A stretch of 62,781 bases of DNA from a virus (lineage: Duplodnaviria; Caudoviricetes), in IMG/VR virus record IMGVR_UViG_3300036840_000070, positions 1 to 62,781 of that record; one strand, written 5' to 3'. The notes under the pieces were generated by a model that was not told where the DNA came from, searched no databases, and saw nothing but the letters and a program-made list of their open reading frames with translations. The translations under genes and the position numbers were made by a program. This document shows, piece by piece, positions 18,215 to 62,428 of the stretch. Each line of letters begins with the position of its first letter. Position 1 is the stretch's first letter.

Positions 18215-18226
18215 GATCCATGGATC
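18215..18226. promoter_or_regulatory. GATCCATGGATC palindrome, candidate operator between divergent promoters
   Basis: 19-bp identity (inverted) with 51262-51280. Confidence 0.6.
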
Positions 18227-51646: not shown

Positions 51647-51844
51647 GTGGCTAAGAAGGTTCTTCCGGTGCATCTCGAGGATCGCGAGCGTGGTATTTTG
51701 CGGCTGCTGAGTGAGCGCCAGCAGGTGAGCATGGCTGAGGTGGTGCGGCGCATGATCCGCAGCGCAGCACTGGATGTGATGGATCCGAAGGCGCTCGATC
51801 GCTCGAGCGTTGCGCCGGTGGCAGCAGGGGATGGCGCGCACTGA
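51647..51844 (+). CDS. CopG/Arc-like ribbon-helix-helix regulator
   Basis: V.L...E...L..L.....VSMAEVVR..I. Confidence 0.75.
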   Translation: MAKKVLPVHLEDRERGILRLLSERQQVSMAEVVRRMIRSAALDVMDPKALDRSSVAPVAAGDGAH

Positions 51845-56211: not shown

Positions 56212-56457
56212 ATGAGCCAATCCAACCAACCCGAGTTAGACCAAACCAAGATCGACACCCTCGTGGAGGCGCTCGATGCGCTGCCGCAGGTGCCCGGCTG
56301 GGAGGGCGTGAGGCAGAACGCATCCGTCGGCTACTACCAGACGGTGCCCGCCAACAACCTGGCGCTGGACATCCGCGGGCTGACCTTCGAAGAGCAGCAG
56401 CACACGGATGCCGCCGAGGCCCTCGCGGTGCGCGCCGCGAATGGCGAATTCAGCTGA
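56212..56457 (+). CDS. Hypothetical protein, paralog of the next gene
   Basis: LP.VPG..G.R.NA..YY.T.P...RGL.F...R...GEF. Confidence 0.7.
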   Translation: MSQSNQPELDQTKIDTLVEALDALPQVPGWEGVRQNASVGYYQTVPANNLALDIRGLTFEEQQHTDAAEALAVRAANGEFS

Positions 56458-56474
56458 CCGTGGCATCATCGGGC

Positions 56475-56825
56475 ATGGCAAATCATCCACCCGATCAACC
56501 GAACACCGAGGGCACGCCCGCTGATAAGCCCGCGCCCGATCACGTCACCGGCACCGCGCCCGAGGAGATCGCGAAGACATCGCACCTGCAGCCGTCAGCG
56601 AACAGCGCGGCGGGCGCTGCGCTGCAGGCAGCGATCAGCGGGCTGCCCGCGGTGCCCGGCACCGATGGCCTGCGCGCAAACGCGAACTACTACGCCACCG
56701 CGCCGCGCGAGGAGCTGCTCAGCGTGCTGCGCGGGCTGAAGTTCCCGGGCAACGAAGCCGCCGAGAAAACACGCGATGACCTGGTGCGCCGCGTGGAAGG
56801 TGGCGAATTCGGCAGCACCAAATAG
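56475..56825 (+). CDS. Hypothetical protein, paralog of the previous gene
   Basis: Same motif plus a disordered N-terminus. Confidence 0.7.
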   Translation: MANHPPDQPNTEGTPADKPAPDHVTGTAPEEIAKTSHLQPSANSAAGAALQAAISGLPAVPGTDGLRANANYYATAPREELLSVLRGLKFPGNEAAEKTRDDLVRRVEGGEFGSTK

Positions 56826-56907
56826 GTGACGGCCCGGGTGAACCGCCAAGCACACCCGGGCCATCGTGGCCGCCACAGTCGCGAAGCACCGTAACGGAGG
56901 CGGCCGT
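56820..56907 (-). ncRNA. Candidate trans-acting antisense sRNA
   Basis: TAGAAC at 56918-56913; three hairpins; carries GGUGCUUC and loop UUGGCGGUU complementary to the repeated leaders; ends approximate. Confidence 0.55.
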
Positions 56908-56928
56908 TGTTTGTTCTAGCGGGTGGGC

Positions 56929-57129
56929 TCAGCCTTCGCCATCGCCCTCAGCGTTCGTGCAGTCACCATCGCGGTGGGGCTCGGCGTAACGCTGGGCGTG
57001 GCACCAGCACCGGCACCACGGGCTGGGTGATGGGCAGCACGCGGGCTCACAGCGATTGCTGCAGTGCTGGGCGCAGGTGCAGATGCCGAGGTTCAGCGGC
57101 TGCCCGTCAGGCGTGAGCACGTCAGCCAC
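56929..57129 (-). CDS. Very Cys-rich small protein
   Basis: 11 Cys in 66 aa; last gene of the leftward array. Confidence 0.5.
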   Translation of the reverse strand: MADVLTPDGQPLNLGICTCAQHCSNRCEPACCPSPSPWCRCWCHAQRYAEPHRDGDCTNAEGDGEG

Positions 57130-57340
57130 GCGCCACCGCCTCGCGTAGCGCCTCAGGCGCGTGCTCCGGGCAGCGCGCGTGTAGGGCCTGCCAGTCGATC
57201 ACGGGCAGCAGCACCACCCAGCCCGGGGGCAGCGCGAGCCAGACTGCCGAGGGCGCGCCGCCGAAGTCAGCCGTGTGCACGTGCGCCGGCGCGGTGGCGC
57301 GGCAGAGCGCGCAGCGCAGGGTCAGCCTTTCGGTGCTCAT
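57122..57340 (-). CDS. Small Cys/His protein
   Basis: CALC...P.GW...CPEH; ATGA overlap. Confidence 0.6.
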   Translation of the reverse strand: MSTERLTLRCALCRATAPAHVHTADFGGAPSAVWLALPPGWVVLLPVIDWQALHARCPEHAPEALREAVARG

Positions 57341-58257
57341 CGACACGCCTCGTTGACCAGCGGCCACAGCCGGTCGCGATCGGGCCAGTCCATGGCCCAT
57401 GCGATGAGCTCCCGCGCGAAGGGGCGGCACTGGGGCTGCAGTGCGGGGAGCAGGGCGTGCACCGCGGCGAGGGCACCGTCGCGCCCATCGTCATCGCCCG
57501 CCGCGTACAGCTGCCAGCACGCAGCGATCGCTTCGAGAGCCAGCTTATCCTGCCCCGTGAGCGCGGCCAGCTTCGGCATCGGGCCGAAGCGCGGCGCGGG
57601 CCAGCCATCAGCCTGAAGGCCACGCAGCCAGGTGAGTGGCTTCATCGCCGGGCCTTCTTCTTCGCGCGGTTCGCACGGTGCAGTTTGTTGCGTGCAACAT
57701 ACTCGGCCGCGTGCGTGGGGCAAACCGTGAGCACGCGGCCTCGCCTCACGGCGGCGGGGCGCGCGCAGACCACGCAGCGCTTCCGCTTCTTTAGCGCGGG
57801 GCTCGATGCGCTGCCAGTCGCGCGTGATGTCGCGATCGTGATCGCCCGGGTGCGCAGCGTACTGCCCGACTGCGCCGGTGCCCGTCTCATCGCAACCCCA
57901 GAAGGATCCATCGGGGGCCACGTAGCATCCCAGGTCATCCGTCTGCCGCCGCCATGTGTGATAGTAGCCACCGCTCGTGGGTACGTCTTCGGTGGCGTGG
58001 CGCTGCACGATCGCCAGCCGCGGGGCAGCGTGCCCGTAGTGCAGCTCCGCCTTCGGCGGGTATGAGTTGTCGTAGTGCCCCGCTTCATCGGTGATGCTGG
58101 TGGCGCGGCGCTTGAACACCTCGGGCTGCCGCACCGCCAGGATGCGGGCCATCGCGCGGCACAGGCGCAGCAGGCGCTCGCATTCGGCAGCGTTATCGTT
58201 CTCGGCCTGCGCGGCCAGGGCCTCGAGCTGTTCGATCGTGATGGTGGTGGTGGTCAC
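57337..58257 (-). CDS. Apparent fusion ORF; internal gene starts at 57645
   Basis: AAGGGA RBS at 58257; ATGA overlap at 57642-57645 with a different-frame remnant. Confidence 0.5.
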   Translation of the reverse strand: MTTTTITIEQLEALAAQAENDNAAECERLLRLCRAMARILAVRQPEVFKRRATSITDEAGHYDNSYPPKAELHYGHAAPRLAIVQRHATEDVPTSGGYYHTWRRQTDDLGCYVAPDGSFWGCDETGTGAVGQYAAHPGDHDRDITRDWQRIEPRAKEAEALRGLRAPRRREARPRAHGLPHARGRVCCTQQTAPCEPREEEGPAMKPLTWLRGLQADGWPAPRFGPMPKLAALTGQDKLALEAIAACWQLYAAGDDDGRDGALAAVHALLPALQPQCRPFARELIAWAMDWPDRDRLWPLVNEACR

Positions 58258-58285
58258 TTTGTTTGATCCCTTTCGTGGTCTTCGT

Positions 58286-58702
58286 TCAGCCGGCGCACGC
58301 CGGGCACAGGTCAATCACGCGCAGCGCACGCACGCCGCGCATCTGCCAGTCGCGGCGCCCCGCGATGTCATCGGTGGACCGCGCGCCGCAGTGATCGCAC
58401 GTGCGCACCTCCTCCATGCCCGCGGGCAGCAGCGCGCCCAGCGCAGGCGCGGGCTTGCTCACGGGCGTGACGCGGTCGAGCTCAGCGAAGATGACGGCCA
58501 GCAGCGCGTCACCTTCGCGCGTATCCCACCAGCTGTCGGCCTCACTGGCGAAGGCCTCCTTCGGCATGCGGGCCACGATCGGCTGCACGCGCGCGAACGC
58601 GTCGGGGCTGTGGAACTTCAGCGCCGCCAGCAGGCGGGGCACCACGCTGGACGGATGCGGGTTACCGGTGCGCAGGATCAGGGCGTAGTCAGAACAGGTC
58701 AC
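58286..58702 (-). CDS. Hypothetical protein with C-terminal zinc ribbon
   Basis: CDHC...CPAC; motif leader. Confidence 0.65.
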   Translation of the reverse strand: MTCSDYALILRTGNPHPSSVVPRLLAALKFHSPDAFARVQPIVARMPKEAFASEADSWWDTREGDALLAVIFAELDRVTPVSKPAPALGALLPAGMEEVRTCDHCGARSTDDIAGRRDWQMRGVRALRVIDLCPACAG

Positions 58703-58706
58703 GGCT

Positions 58707-58756
58707 GGTGCTTCTTCCTGCGCGCGGCCCGGGGTTTGGCGGTTCGGGCAGCGCGC
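58707..58756 (-). promoter_or_regulatory. AACCGCCAA-loop hairpin plus GAAGCACC leader
   Basis: Stem gcgcgc-t-gcccg / cgggc-c-gcgcgc. Confidence 0.8.
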
Positions 58757-58796
58757 GGCTGTGGGTTGTCATGGTGGACGGACCGCGCGGGCGCGG

Positions 58797-59009
58797 CTAG
58801 AGGGGATCTTCGCGAAGGTCATCCAGGTGATCGATCCCGTACGCGCCGGGGGCCTGGCATTCGCCGTCACCGGGGCAGCCGGCTTCACGGCACGCCCAGC
58901 AGAACGCGCCGGGCAGGCCGATGGCGATTTCGAAACAGTCGCGGCAGCCGCACGGGCGGTAGCCTGAGACGGGCGCAGGGCGGGCTTTGCCGCGGGCAGG
59001 GCGGGACAT
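58797..59009 (-). CDS. Cys-rich small protein
   Basis: CGCRDC, CWAC, C..C; motif leader. Confidence 0.65.
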   Translation of the reverse strand: MSRPARGKARPAPVSGYRPCGCRDCFEIAIGLPGAFCWACREAGCPGDGECQAPGAYGIDHLDDLREDPL

Positions 59010-59011
59010 GG

Positions 59012-59051
59012 GGTGCTTCTCCGAAAGCGCGCCTGGTTGGCGGTTGGCGCG
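59012..59051 (-). promoter_or_regulatory. AACCGCCAA-loop hairpin plus GAAGCACC leader
   Basis: Stem cgcgcc / ggcgcg. Confidence 0.8.
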
Positions 59052-59122
59052 GTTGGCGGGGCCGTTCGCTGGCCACCCTGCGGCGCCCGACCCGTTGCTG
59101 GGTGAGGCGCCGCCAGGGCAGG

Positions 59123-59635
59123 TCAGCGCGCCGCGCGCCAGGCGGCGCGGAGGGCTTCGGCCTGCGCCGCCGTGCAGCGGTCCGCCACCAGGCGCTTCGC
59201 GTGAACCGCGCCGCCCGCGCCGCACAGCACCCGCAGGGCGTGCAGGGCGCGCACCAGGGAGCCCCCGGCGGTGTAGTCCATGAGCGCATACTCCACGGCT
59301 TCGCGGGCAGCGTTCACGTCCACGCGTCCGGTGAGCACGGGGCGGCCATCGCGGCGCACCACCTCAGCCACGCGGTAGTCCGCCACGCCGGCAGCGGCCT
59401 GCAGCTCGGTGAGGGCCGCCTGGTACGCGGGGCCCCGCAGCGCGTCCAGGCGCGTCCGTGCCGCCTGGCACGTGGGGCAGGCGTATTCGATGCCCGCGTG
59501 CCCGAGCCCACCGATGCCGCCGTGCGCGGCGGTGCGGCGCCAGGCTTTGCCGCTGCCGGTGCAGCCTACGATGGCTGCCCAGACATCCGGGAACGTGTTG
59601 CAAGCGCGGGGCTTCGTGGCGGTCTTCCAAGTCAT
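59123..59635 (-). CDS. Hypothetical protein
   Basis: AGGAG RBS; motif leader; own -10 box. Confidence 0.65.
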   Translation of the reverse strand: MTWKTATKPRACNTFPDVWAAIVGCTGSGKAWRRTAAHGGIGGLGHAGIEYACPTCQAARTRLDALRGPAYQAALTELQAAAGVADYRVAEVVRRDGRPVLTGRVDVNAAREAVEYALMDYTAGGSLVRALHALRVLCGAGGAVHAKRLVADRCTAAQAEALRAAWRAAR

Positions 59636-59691
59636 GGTGCTTCTCCTGCGCGCTGCGGAGTTTGGCGGTTCGCTGCGCGCCCTAGATCATA
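59636..59691 (-). promoter_or_regulatory. TATGAT -10 box, AACCGCCAA-loop hairpin and GAAGCACC leader
   Basis: Stem gcgcgc-a-gcg / cgc-a-gcgcgc. Confidence 0.8.
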
Positions 59692-59775
59692 GCTCCGAAC
59701 GGCAGGCGCGCGCCCGTCAGGTGAGCGGTTTTGCTCGCCTTTCTGGCACGCGCCGAAAGATGACGGGGGGCCCCC

Positions 59776-60366
59776 TTACCGCACCAGCTGGTCCAGCGCT
59801 TCGGCCAGCGCGTTCGCTGCGGCCTGGTGCTGCCCGGTCTCGGCAGCGTAGCGGCACGCGCGGGCCATCACCACGAAGGGCGTCAGCGGCCCATCCGTGC
59901 CGTGCCAGATCGCGCTGCGTGCCACGGCTATGGCATCGTCGGACGCGTCGTCACCGGCTGCCGCCAGGCTCACCGCCACGCGGTACTGCTCACCGCCCAG
60001 CGTCAGCACGAAGCCCGCGCCGCGCGTCAGGGTGAGCACCCGGGCCTCCTCGAGGCTCATCGCGTGGAAGTCACCGGCATCGCTGACGGCATCGATCGCA
60101 GCGTAGCGTTCGTCGTCCGTGTTGCCGGGATCCAGTAGCGTCAGCATCAGCTCCGCCATCTGCGCGGGCTTCGTGGCGGTGCGATCCGCCTGCACGGATG
60201 CGCGCAGCTTCGCGAACGCGGCATCGTCCATGGCTGCGCAGCGCGCGGCATCGAGGGCGCACAGCACCACGCCGAAGCCGGTCGCGTTGCTACGCTCATC
60301 GCTGTAGTAGTTCGGGCCTGCGCTCGTGCCGCAGATCTCACACGGGAATTCGGGGCGGGTAGTCAT
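59776..60366 (-). CDS. Hypothetical protein
   Basis: CEIC N-terminus; motif leader. Confidence 0.65.
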   Translation of the reverse strand: MTTRPEFPCEICGTSAGPNYYSDERSNATGFGVVLCALDAARCAAMDDAAFAKLRASVQADRTATKPAQMAELMLTLLDPGNTDDERYAAIDAVSDAGDFHAMSLEEARVLTLTRGAGFVLTLGGEQYRVAVSLAAAGDDASDDAIAVARSAIWHGTDGPLTPFVVMARACRYAAETGQHQAAANALAEALDQLVR

Positions 60367-60370
60367 CGGT

Positions 60371-60393
60371 GGTGCTTCCTAGGTTTGGCGGTT
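60371..60393 (-). promoter_or_regulatory. AACCGCCAAAC plus GAAGCACC leader (no strong stem)
   Basis: Both boxes 4 nt apart. Confidence 0.7.
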
Positions 60394-60461
60394 TGATGGT
60401 GGCCTGAGCGGCAACCCGACCGCCCCCGGGCATCAGCGCAGGGGCAGGCAGGCGGCGGCGC

Positions 60462-60782
60462 TCAGTCAGGGCACACGCAGCCGGCGTTCGCGGCGGCTTC
60501 GATGGCCACCTCCTCAGCGATCGCTTCGGAACCGTCACACATGCTCTCGTCATCGTGGGCGTAGCTCACCACGATCACGCCATCGCTAGGCACCACCAGG
60601 TGCAGCTCGTAGCCCAGCTCCTCGGCGGTGATGATGCGTGACAGCTCATCGGCCACGCGCTGCGTGGTGGCTTCGAGCTCGGCCTGCGTGGCTGCCGTGC
60701 AGGCTGCCGTGTGGCGCACGCGGATGGTGACGATCCCGAGGCCCGTGTTGACGTCGGCGGTGATCTTGGCGGCGGTCTTCAT
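60462..60782 (-). CDS. Acidic hypothetical protein, first gene of the leftward array
   Basis: Motif leader; own -10 box. Confidence 0.65.
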   Translation of the reverse strand: MKTAAKITADVNTGLGIVTIRVRHTAACTAATQAELEATTQRVADELSRIITAEELGYELHLVVPSDGVIVVSYAHDDESMCDGSEAIAEEVAIEAAANAGCVCPD

Positions 60783-60785
60783 GGC

Positions 60786-60849
60786 GGTGCTTCTTTCCGT
60801 GGGCCCCGCCAGGTTTGGCGGTTAGGCGGGGCTCACGAAGGACATCCTA
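60786..60849 (-). promoter_or_regulatory. TAGGAT -10 box, AACCGCCAA-loop hairpin and GAAGCACC leader
   Basis: Stem cgtg-a-gccccgcc / ggcggggc-c-cacg. Confidence 0.8.
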
Positions 60850-61075
60850 GCTCCGGGATCGGGCTGCGCCGTGCAGTGAGACCGAATCTCGGTCGCTTTC
60901 GATCCCGGTTTGAGGCGTGCCGAAAGATGGCTCCTGATCCGAGATCTGGTAGCGGGTGGCTAAAGCGGGAAGCAACGGCGCAAGGCTGGGAATGTTGAGG
61001 GCATCGGCGCAGACCACTCACACGCGCACGCGCGCGCGAATTCCCTTGCAACGCTGAGCGTGCGATAACGCTGTT

Positions 61076-62428
61076 GTGGGGCAAGCGAAGAGCAGCAAGG
61101 GCGGCGCTGCACGTGCAGCGCGTGGCAAGGGCAAGGCTGAGGGCGCGGGCAAGGGCAGCGCGCCGCCGCCATCGCTAGGGCTGGTGGAGGGCCTGGTGCC
61201 CAGCAGCGATCCCACCGCCCCTGACTTCGCCTGGTGGCCCATCGATCGCGTGAGGCCCTGGGTGCAGAACCCTCGCAAGAACGCGCGCGCGGTGCCGAAG
61301 GTAGCCGACAGCATTCGCACCTTCGGCTGGGGCAGGCCGCTCGTGGTCAACATGTGGCCCGGGTGTGAGGGTGAGCTGATCATCGGGCACACGGCGTGGC
61401 TGGCCGCGCAGGAGCTGAGCCTCGAGCGGGTGCCGGTGCGCATCCGCAAGATGGACCCTGCAGCCGCGCACGCGCTGGCGATCGCGGATAACAAGCTGGG
61501 TGAGATCAGCGACTGGGATCCCGATGAGCTCGGGCGCATCGTGGGCTCGGGTGAGATCAGCGCAGCGCACCTCGAGGTGGCGGGCTTCAGCGCGGCGGAG
61601 CTGCGCGCGCTGGACGGTCATCCGCAGATGGACGATGACGACGTGCCCGCACCGCCCGCGGTGCCCATCACGCAGCCTGGTGATCTGTGGCTGCTGGGTG
61701 AGCACCGCCTGCTCTGCGGTGACAGCACGCGCGCTGACCACGTGCAGCTGGTGCTCGCTGGCGGGCAGCCCGAGCTCATGGTGACGGATCCGCCCTATGG
61801 CGTCAGCCTGGACAGCACGTGGCGCGACGAATTCTCACCGGTGAAACAGAAGCACACGGGCAAGATCAGCAACGATACCCGGAACGATTGGACGGAGGCG
61901 TGGGCCCTCTTCAAAGGAAGCGTCGCGTACGTGTGGCACGCGGGCGTCTACGGTGCCGAGGTGGCCGCGCATCTGGCGCGCACGAAGCTGTTCGTGAGGC
62001 AGCAGATCATCTGGGCGAAGGCGGCGCTGGTCATGAGCCGCGGGAACTACCACTGGCAGCACGAGCCGTGTTGGTATGTGGTGCGCAAGGGCAGCACCGC
62101 GAATTGGATCGGTGGGCGTAAGCAGACCACGCTCTGGCAGATCCAATCGAAGGTGGGCTTCACGCAGAAGGGCAACGAGGACATGGACACCACGCACGGC
62201 TCGCAGAAGCCGCTGGAATGCATGGCCCGCCCGATCCGCAACCACCGCGGTGACGTGTACGATCCCTTCATGGGCAGCGGCACCACGCTGATCGCAGCGC
62301 AGAAGCTCGGGCGGCGGTGCTACGGGCTCGAGCTCGAGCCGGCGTATTGCGACGTGATCGTGGCGCGGTGGAAGGCGCTAACGGGCGGTGAGCCCCGGCG
62401 CATCGTGGCGGGTGAGGCTGCGGCGTGA
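61076..62428 (+). CDS. ParB-N domain fused to N4/N6 DNA methyltransferase
   Basis: NPRKN..SI..FG..P, IGH, ADNK; HRLLCGDST, TDPPY, H..QKP, DPFMGSGTT. Confidence 0.93.
   Translation: MGQAKSSKGGAARAARGKGKAEGAGKGSAPPPSLGLVEGLVPSSDPTAPDFAWWPIDRVRPWVQNPRKNARAVPKVADSIRTFGWGRPLVVNMWPGCEGELIIGHTAWLAAQELSLERVPVRIRKMDPAAAHALAIADNKLGEISDWDPDELGRIVGSGEISAAHLEVAGFSAAELRALDGHPQMDDDDVPAPPAVPITQPGDLWLLGEHRLLCGDSTRADHVQLVLAGGQPELMVTDPPYGVSLDSTWRDEFSPVKQKHTGKISNDTRNDWTEAWALFKGSVAYVWHAGVYGAEVAAHLARTKLFVRQQIIWAKAALVMSRGNYHWQHEPCWYVVRKGSTANWIGGRKQTTLWQIQSKVGFTQKGNEDMDTTHGSQKPLECMARPIRNHRGDVYDPFMGSGTTLIAAQKLGRRCYGLELEPAYCDVIVARWKALTGGEPRRIVAGEAAA

Follow-up and report, generated by a model that had tools for sequence, protein, structure and literature searches.

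According to what Citron and Schuster are said to have reported in 1990 and 1992, the C4 RNA of the phages P1 and P7 recognizes its target through two boxes, and differences between the P1 and P7 boxes set the specificity. The CI RNA of phage P4 acts by transcription termination, and bacterial small RNAs derived from 3′ untranslated regions, of the CpxQ and SroC type, have unlinked targets and are helped by Hfq. C4 belongs to the immI operon of these two phages. Two papers describe the c4 RNA as repressing Ant synthesis (PMC8546580, PMC8198154), and a third describes the sar RNA of phage P22 as an inhibitor of the antirepressor (PMC5415839). The present analysis concerns virus record IMGVR_UViG_3300036840_000070, which is myovirus-like, originates from a soil metagenome and consists in its entirety of one contig of 62,781 bp (the window, meaning this whole stretch of DNA at its full length). 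On its minus strand, an element of approximately 100 nt (56817–56916) carries the exact complements of two short boxes that recur in the leaders of five leftward genes. The folded structure of this element is conserved among related phages, and one of its two complementary stretches co-varies with the leaders of each genome. On balance, the element is probably an operon-encoded antisense anti-leader RNA, similar to P1 C4, that addresses several targets and controls the gene block in which it lies.

Boxed leaders and their complementary element

The five target genes g1 to g5 (60462–60782, 59776–60366, 59123–59635, 58797–59009 and 58286–58702, minus strand) form an array at 58286–60782. Each is preceded by a leader containing box 1, AACCGCCAA, and then box 2, GAAGCACC, the latter ending 3, 4, 0, 2 and 4 nt ahead of the respective start codons. 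Box 2 is itself preceded by a GGA or GGAG Shine–Dalgarno sequence; the window motif reads RRGAAGCACC. Box 1 occurs seven times in the window against 0.22 expected, and box 2 eleven times against 2.26; in neither case did any of 100 shuffles reach the observed number. Box 1 was located in the five leaders on the minus strand (58736, 59037, 59662, 60385 and 60815), once on the plus strand in an intergenic gap (56841–56849) and once inside a coding region (46041). Box 2 was found in the five leaders and once on the plus strand in the same gap (56883–56890); its five remaining copies fall within coding regions and have no box 1 close by. Outside the five leaders, the two boxes are found together just once, inverted, in the gap at 56826–56928. 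A first-pass annotation of this DNA had reported five boxed leaders, the minus-strand sequence of the gap and an exact complement of both boxes within it, all of which are borne out by the sequence and by these counts.

Four of the five leaders present box 1 in a small hairpin loop, on stems whose sequence varies from leader to leader. In leader 1 (60783–60840, minus strand, as for all five), the hairpin CCCCGCC/GGCGGGG presents box 1 (60815–60823) in its loop with an unpaired probability of 1.0, followed by box 2 (60786–60793) and ATG at 60782. Leader 2 (60367–60400) has box 1 at 60385–60393, box 2 at 60371–60378 and ATG at 60366, with no clear stem. In leader 3 (59636–59690), an interrupted hairpin surrounds box 1 (59662–59670), and box 2 (59636–59643) adjoins ATG at 59635. 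A hairpin also surrounds box 1 in leader 4 (59010–59060; CGCGCC/GGCGCG, box 1 at 59037–59045, box 2 at 59012–59019, ATG at 59009) and in leader 5 (58703–58760; GCCCG/CGGGC, box 1 at 58736–58744, box 2 at 58707–58714, GTG at 58702). Box 2 has a predicted unpaired probability of 0.5–0.75 in the window leaders. Over all genomes described below, 17 of 24 leaders hold box 1 in a loop closed by an unbroken stem of 5 bp or more; among 2000 control positions the share is 19%.

On the array strand, the anti-boxes occupy the apical parts of two adjacent hairpins; the earlier description, in which one was single-stranded and the other in a loop, needs correcting on this point. Hairpin A (56868–56905), predicted by folding, has the stem GGCCGCC/GGCGGCC and encloses anti-box 2, GGUGCUUC (56883–56890), the complement of GAAGCACC, whose central UGCU is unpaired with a probability of 0.9–1.0. 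Hairpin B (56828–56865), supported by folding and by compensatory changes, has a 13-bp stem and a 12-nt loop holding anti-box 1, UUGGCGGUU (56841–56849), the complement of AACCGCCAA, with a loop core unpaired at a probability of about 1.0. The accessible nuclei are 4 nt per loop (UGCU and UGGC), and the predicted box duplexes amount to about −12 to −21 kcal/mol. The element ends with a conserved 3′ tail, ACCUAUUUGG (56818–56827), which reads CAC[C/U]UA in nine of nine elements and may be a weak terminator tail. Beyond this sequence, the tails of the nine elements continue with UUU in four, with other A/U-containing bases in some and with CCCC in G002, one of the relatives introduced below. A terminator scan called a shorter hairpin followed by CCTATTTGGT at the element, with terminator-like calls on both strands. 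A small stem, AACGG/CCGTT, had also been considered for hairpin A, and was dropped in favor of the longer GGCCGCC/GGCGGCC, which has counterparts in relatives (GGGCG...UGCCC).

As a separate observation, g4 and the first part of g5 correspond to a single gene of about 172–188 amino acids in relatives (L148:7077–7640, L153:5792–6310 and L161:3602–4117). In the window, the two are separated by a stop codon and the complete boxed leader 5 (58703–58800). Because this leader splits what is one gene elsewhere, leaders appear to have been gained or moved as cassettes.

Relatives, structural conservation and co-variation

No match was obtained by blastn of 56400–61100 against phage and plasmid collections or by tblastn of the capsid protein against the phage collection, and single-protein locus searches were empty for g2, g6 and the capsid protein in viral contigs and for DnaB in genome contigs. 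Relatives were recovered by alignment-based searches only. An alignment of capsid homologues yielded four near-complete genomes from IMG/VR (G001–G004), and an alignment of g4-like proteins yielded short metagenome contigs (L195, L197, L198, L199 and L201), where L164 and L196 duplicate the G004 contig and L198 is almost identical to L195. The g4-like alignment gave just two distant matches in genome contigs, in a Myxococcales metagenome-assembled genome and a Streptomyces genome. The capsid homologue family sits on contigs of about 55–67 kb, and the closest homologue, at 80% identity, is on a 64-kb Logan contig. Identities of G001–G004 to the window are 53–58% for DnaB and 59–64% for the capsid protein. 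In G001, G002 and G004, homologues of g3, g4 and g5 run towards the same replication module.

The element was found in nine copies, eight of them beyond the window and eight non-redundant. Each element-bearing genome has one, on the array strand and downstream of a g5-like gene. A covariance model (R1) built from the nine copies scored the window element at 90.9 bits (E 7.5e-21). Run over 97 sources totaling 923 kb, it returned exactly the nine at E below 1e-13 and no further member, the other matches scoring 15–24 bits. A search of the whole window against Rfam 15 gave no family match at gathering scores, and a permissive search of 56750–57000 gave five chance-level matches, none of them C4; with no Rfam match, the element is not a member of the C4 family. 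In viral contigs, a pattern for the GGTTTGGCGATT subtype recovered G001 only. A two-box pattern scan of viral contigs was rejected: its 117 loci were chance matches, with one match each and no protein kinship.

Hairpin B is the best supported part of the structure. Nine of its 13 pairs show compensatory changes on both sides, and 97.4% of its alignment cells are paired (100% in the model-fitted alignment), a value equaled by none of 500 shuffles; sliding the partner strand by 1–3 columns lowers pairing to 34–50%. The TGGCG of its loop is invariant in all nine elements. For hairpin A, an equivalent was predicted in nine of nine elements by individual folding, and 80% of its helix cells pair once the alignment is fitted to the model, which suggests a moderate level of conservation support. 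Compensatory box changes over related phages had been named as a check by the first-pass annotation, and the comparison came out in its favor, with compensatory changes in the stem of hairpin B and anti-box 2 tracking box 2.

The leaders of the relatives share the layout of those in the window, with box 1 presented by a hairpin loop and box 2 bridging the Shine–Dalgarno sequence and the start codon, and box 2 exists in at least five variants among the genomes, including GAAGCACC, GGAGAAAGCC, GGAGAAGCTC, GGAGAAGCC and GGAGAAAACC. The window has GAAGCACC in five leaders, G001 has GGAGAAAGCC in four and a deviant fifth, G002 has GGAGAAGCTC in three, G004 has G(GA)GAAAGCC in three, L195 and L198 have GGAGAAGCC in three each, L197 has GGAGAAAACCCC in one and L199 has GAGAAAAGCC in one. 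In every case, the element is complementary to the variant of the genome in which it lies. Measured as the longest contiguous complement between the last 22 nt of a leader and the hairpin A region of its own genome, the anti-box 2 match is 7–12 nt in 23 of 24 leaders and ends 0–5 nt before the start codon; the box 1 match is 7–10 nt in 24 of 24. In a permutation test on seven genomes (L198 omitted as a near-duplicate, and L201 as having no leader on its contig), the cognate assignment scored 63.9, a score reached by two of 5040 permutations. In G001, G002, L195, L198 and L197, the anti-box covers the Shine–Dalgarno GGAG itself.

Several observations indicate which strand is the RNA. Genes on the array strand continue past the element in at least four relatives (G002, G004, L197 and L201), where it thus sits between same-strand genes; this argues that the array strand is the RNA strand, and in the same four the opposite strand at the element would be antisense to coding sequence. 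Five cells of hairpin B are G–U or U–G pairs on the array strand and A–C mismatches on the other, and a G–U pair was noted by eye in six copies of the outer stem of hairpin A. The array strand was predicted to fold better in eight of nine elements, by 1.5 to 19 kcal/mol, the exception being G004 (−51.1 versus −51.6 kcal/mol for the opposite strand). In the window, the minus strand of the gap folds at −57.5 kcal/mol (z −3.1) and the plus strand at −51.1 kcal/mol (z −1.7), and the argument made earlier from a U–G pair versus a C–A mismatch in the last stem holds. On the array strand, the element is complementary, not identical, to the leaders. Since the same-strand relation is one of complementarity, base pairing can explain it and a shared protein-binding site cannot.

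Proposed mechanism and alternative explanations

We infer from these sequences that the RNA exists, that it pairs with the leaders and that the outcome is repression. The array strand would be transcribed through the element at the distal end of the small-gene block. The loop of hairpin B, UUGGCGGUU, would then make a loop–loop contact with AACCGCCAA in the leader hairpins, and the apical GGUGCUUC of hairpin A would pair with the stretch between the Shine–Dalgarno sequence and the start codon. So bound, the RNA would cover the ribosome-binding regions of several genes at once, and their translation would most likely be shut off. The result would be a delayed negative feedback, produced by the very transcription unit under control; the RNA could reach other mRNA copies (trans) or fold back onto its own (cis). 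Covering a Shine–Dalgarno site blocks 30S binding in antisense control, and translational repression is the most likely outcome because the anti-box covers GGAG in most genomes. The first-pass annotation had proposed a multi-target small RNA from the minus strand. The two-box pairing with several targets is strongly supported by the compensatory stems and by the tracking of box 2; the idea of a separate small RNA fares less well, since no convincing promoter of its own precedes the element, which may instead be a 3′ or intergenic part of the operon transcript. An early timing of the target genes and an action as a switch, both part of that proposal, are likewise conjectural.

A number of points weigh against this proposal. 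Folding predicts that roughly half of each anti-box is taken up by its own hairpin, and pairing with a leader would for this reason need strand invasion. A sigma-70 scan of 56300–61300 returned no sites, and the hexamer TAGAAC before the element aligns with TA-containing hexamers in relatives that overlap stop codons in G001 and G004, for which reason it is not claimed as a promoter. The first leader of G001 (24310) has a box 2 match of just 5 nt, the sole exception of the 24; the leaders of G004 match the element of G001 better than their own; and the single known leader of L199 has only 7 nt in each box. Box 1 is nearly identical in every genome and thus carries no specificity signal. Several of the weak R1 matches (15–24 bits) are reverse complements of leaders. 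The element probably arose, to judge from its sequence, as an inverted leader copy, and the shared boxes could therefore partly reflect repeat homogenization. Finally, the sole sequencing run containing this stretch is a DNA soil metagenome, which may be the source sample; the run listing includes none of RNA, and the RNA is predicted from sequence.

Among the alternatives, the one that survives best, though we regard it as unlikely, keeps the same pairing, either in cis between the 5′ and 3′ ends of one mRNA or in trans, and gives it a different outcome, namely stabilization, processing or activation. It is consistent with the placement of element and targets in one transcription unit. Left to themselves, the leaders show no obvious sequestration of their Shine–Dalgarno regions, as the unpaired probabilities of box 2 indicate; activation by unmasking is consequently not required, and room is left for stabilization or processing. 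Against this alternative stand the five genomes in which GGAG itself is covered, where the textbook result would be a block of 30S binding.

A second alternative, quite improbable in our estimation, regards the element as an inverted, gene-less copy of a leader, kept by repeat recombination or as a decoy on the opposite strand, with complementarity as a by-product. The opposite strand does read as a hairpin with AACCGCCAA in its loop and then GAAGCACC, in the window and G001 it makes up the 3′ end of the convergent replication operon, and the reverse complements of leaders match the model of the element, if weakly. However, on that strand the window, G001 and G004 all lack a start codon after box 2, and in at least four relatives that strand is antisense to coding genes, as described above. 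The element also differs from the leaders in form: its stem is 13 bp as opposed to 5–11 bp in the leaders, its boxes are spaced by about 33 nt as opposed to 6–25 nt, its conserved CACCUA tail is without a leader counterpart, and its wobble pairs favor the array strand.

That the boxes are DNA sites, bound in either orientation by a DNA-binding protein of phage or host, seems highly improbable. Short motifs repeated upstream of phage genes are often operators, such as the stoperators of cluster A mycobacteriophages (PMC3203893), but the position of box 1 in hairpin loops whose stems vary with compensation points to a single-stranded nucleic acid, box 2 is held at 0–5 nt from start codons, and most leaders are internal to operons with no promoter-like sequence nearby. 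It is less probable still that the element is a mere pair of terminators between convergent operons with functionless leader matches, as the convergent gap, the T-containing tails of both hairpins and the terminator-like calls on both strands might suggest: terminators need no set loop sequence, whereas here TGGCG never varies and anti-box 2 changes together with the leaders, the tail in G002 is ACCUACCCCC and the true convergent gap of that genome lies further on with a plain hairpin of its own, and the region has three terminator-like sites against 1.5 expected by chance.

Genomic surroundings and related systems

The gap at 56826–56928 is the meeting point of convergent operons, the leftward block and a rightward replication module (initiator, DnaB-type helicase and RuvC-like resolvase) whose last gene lies at 56460–56825 on the plus strand. 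The first-pass annotation placed this gap after the last gene of the array; four leftward open reading frames (ORFs) with no boxed leader, g6 to g9 (56929–58257, minus strand), intervene after the fifth boxed gene, and the element starts 12 nt past the stop codon of g9. The nine leftward ORFs g1 to g9 (60782 to 56929) gave no PHROG or Pfam family match. Homologues of g3, g4 and g5 are present in relatives; g2 has no homologue except itself among 5.8 billion proteins. Elsewhere, the window encodes a large terminase, portal, capsid protein and tail sheath, together with a RecE/RecT pair.

The virus had been taken for a phage-plasmid with no recognizable CI. No integrase, repressor or partition system was found among the 40 ORFs of the window that were scanned, the sole ParB-like match being a ParB-N domain fused to a DNA methyltransferase, and direct terminal repeats are present in two relatives. 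The phage-plasmid label is accordingly unsupported. The absence of a recognizable CI agrees with the same 40 ORFs, with the reservation that a small ORF heading the rightward replication operon (51650–51844, plus strand) looks ribbon-helix-helix-like by eye (VAKKVLPVHLEDRERGILRLLSE...) and is a candidate transcriptional regulator.

Other features of the region were recorded. The ORF with a GTG start at 58257 (57642–58257, minus strand) shows an apparent frame change near 57790, with a plausible zinc-finger-like C-terminus in another frame (CxxC...CPTH, ending at 57642); a programmed frameshift, a pair of genes or an error of assembly could account for it. Directly after the stop codon of g2, at 59750–59776 on the minus strand, GGGGGCCCCCC is followed by GUCAUCUUUCGG, and then come GAGCTATGAT (compare GAGCTAGGAT ahead of leader 1) and leader 3; this sequence suggests that g1–g2 and g3 onwards are separate transcription units. 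The palindrome GATCCATGGATC is intergenic at 18215, 51265 and 54467 in the window and has five copies in G003 and three in G004, and its half-site GATCCATG recurs where promoter-like sequence precedes the array leaders of G002, G004 and L198. It may be an operator or a methylation site.

Motifs placed at gene starts are also known from cluster K mycobacteriophages. The start-associated sequence (SAS) of these phages is described as an asymmetric, Shine–Dalgarno-containing motif a few bases before the starts of many non-structural genes, often with an upstream inverted repeat (ESAS), and K1 phages are noted to have a single reversed copy that precedes no gene (PMC3203893). The ESAS repeats were judged unlikely to be RNA hairpins, and promoters were later placed there (PMC3203893, PMC11373665); in these and a further paper, SAS function is given as unknown in 2011, 2024 and 2025 (PMC3203893, PMC11373665, PMC12699233). 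The window resembles the SAS phages in that all five sites lie 0–4 nt before starts on one strand and are accompanied by a single inverted copy with no start. It differs from them in the motif sequence, in the number of copies (3–5 per genome versus 11–19) and in its upstream repeat, which here is a hairpin with a conserved loop. The published SAS consensus GGGATAGGAGCCC, allowing at most two mismatches at 3–9 bp before starts, was found only in mycobacteriophage records, with 17 sites in Anaya, and is absent from the window.

In Anaya, the lone inverted SAS, known since 2011, falls within the 385 nt of non-coding DNA that separate gp96 from gp97 (L248:34845–34905, record 59844–59904), on the coding strand. 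It occupies a 10-nt hairpin loop, CCUCCUAUCC, within a 161-nt region that folds with a z score of −4.0. This region is conserved in 135 mycobacteriophage records, mostly unannotated, and its hairpin bears some compensatory changes. In Amohnition, 17 standard SAS sites are retained, but the loop, CCCTCCTTCCCC, is a weaker complement, and the hairpin loop of SirPhilip contains no anti-SAS. With this mixed cross-check, the cluster K anti-SAS hairpin is a lead, not a result.

In G003, a relative that does not have the g3–g5 array, a different motif, GGAAACCAAGACCA, stands just before the ATG of at least eight genes, and a long hairpin in a gap between convergent genes bears one inverted 16-nt copy of it at its tip (L155:7135–7391, the same genome). 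A similar motif, (G)ACCGAGACCAA or AGCCAGAGACCAA, was seen before the ATG of a gene downstream of the element in four relatives, where it is the next gene in three (L153:5358, minus strand; L161:4478, L197:1394 and L201:1531, plus strand).

The co-variation in seven genomes, the G003 motif and the cluster K hairpin are three independent hints towards a broader and more tentative idea, which may well not hold: start-associated motifs in general could be addresses for a phage-encoded anti-leader RNA. A single structured RNA of small size would then switch the translation of an entire gene set, and its box, a programmable specificity code drifting in step with the targets, would give translational immunity or incompatibility between related phages, as in P1 and P7. 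A literature search found no description of such an anti-leader RNA; the supplementary tables of SAS sites (PMC3203893, PMC12699233) lay outside this search and may bear on the question. If the proposal for the present element is true, a structured phage RNA family absent from Rfam would use two loops of one RNA to address several ribosome-binding sites. The five box variants with matching anti-boxes amount to natural compensatory mutants, in which cognate and non-cognate pairs can be compared directly. The proposal also offers a concrete hypothesis for the mycobacteriophage start-associated sequences, and a short, orthogonal, multi-target controller of translation could be useful in G+C-rich hosts for synthetic biology.

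How does the element compare with known antisense RNAs? As with C4 of P1 and P7, it is structured, shares an operon with its targets and has two short boxes, one of them over the ribosome-binding site. C4 is cut out of a precursor that carries it upstream of its single target; the element, in contrast, lies downstream of all targets in the window, G001, G002, G004, L195 and L198, and has 3–5 targets per genome. With P4 CI and P22 sar it shares the character of a phage antisense RNA that addresses neighboring genes through short complementary stretches; sar, however, is cis-antisense from the opposite strand, whereas regulator and targets are here on the same strand and are linked by separate short boxes. 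Similar to CpxQ and SroC, the element is located at the distal end of an mRNA, ends in a hairpin, is possibly released by processing and has no convincing promoter of its own, but it would act on leaders within its own gene block and recognize them via two hairpin loops. Overall, the element would constitute a new RNA family whose logic is of a known kind and whose arrangement is new.

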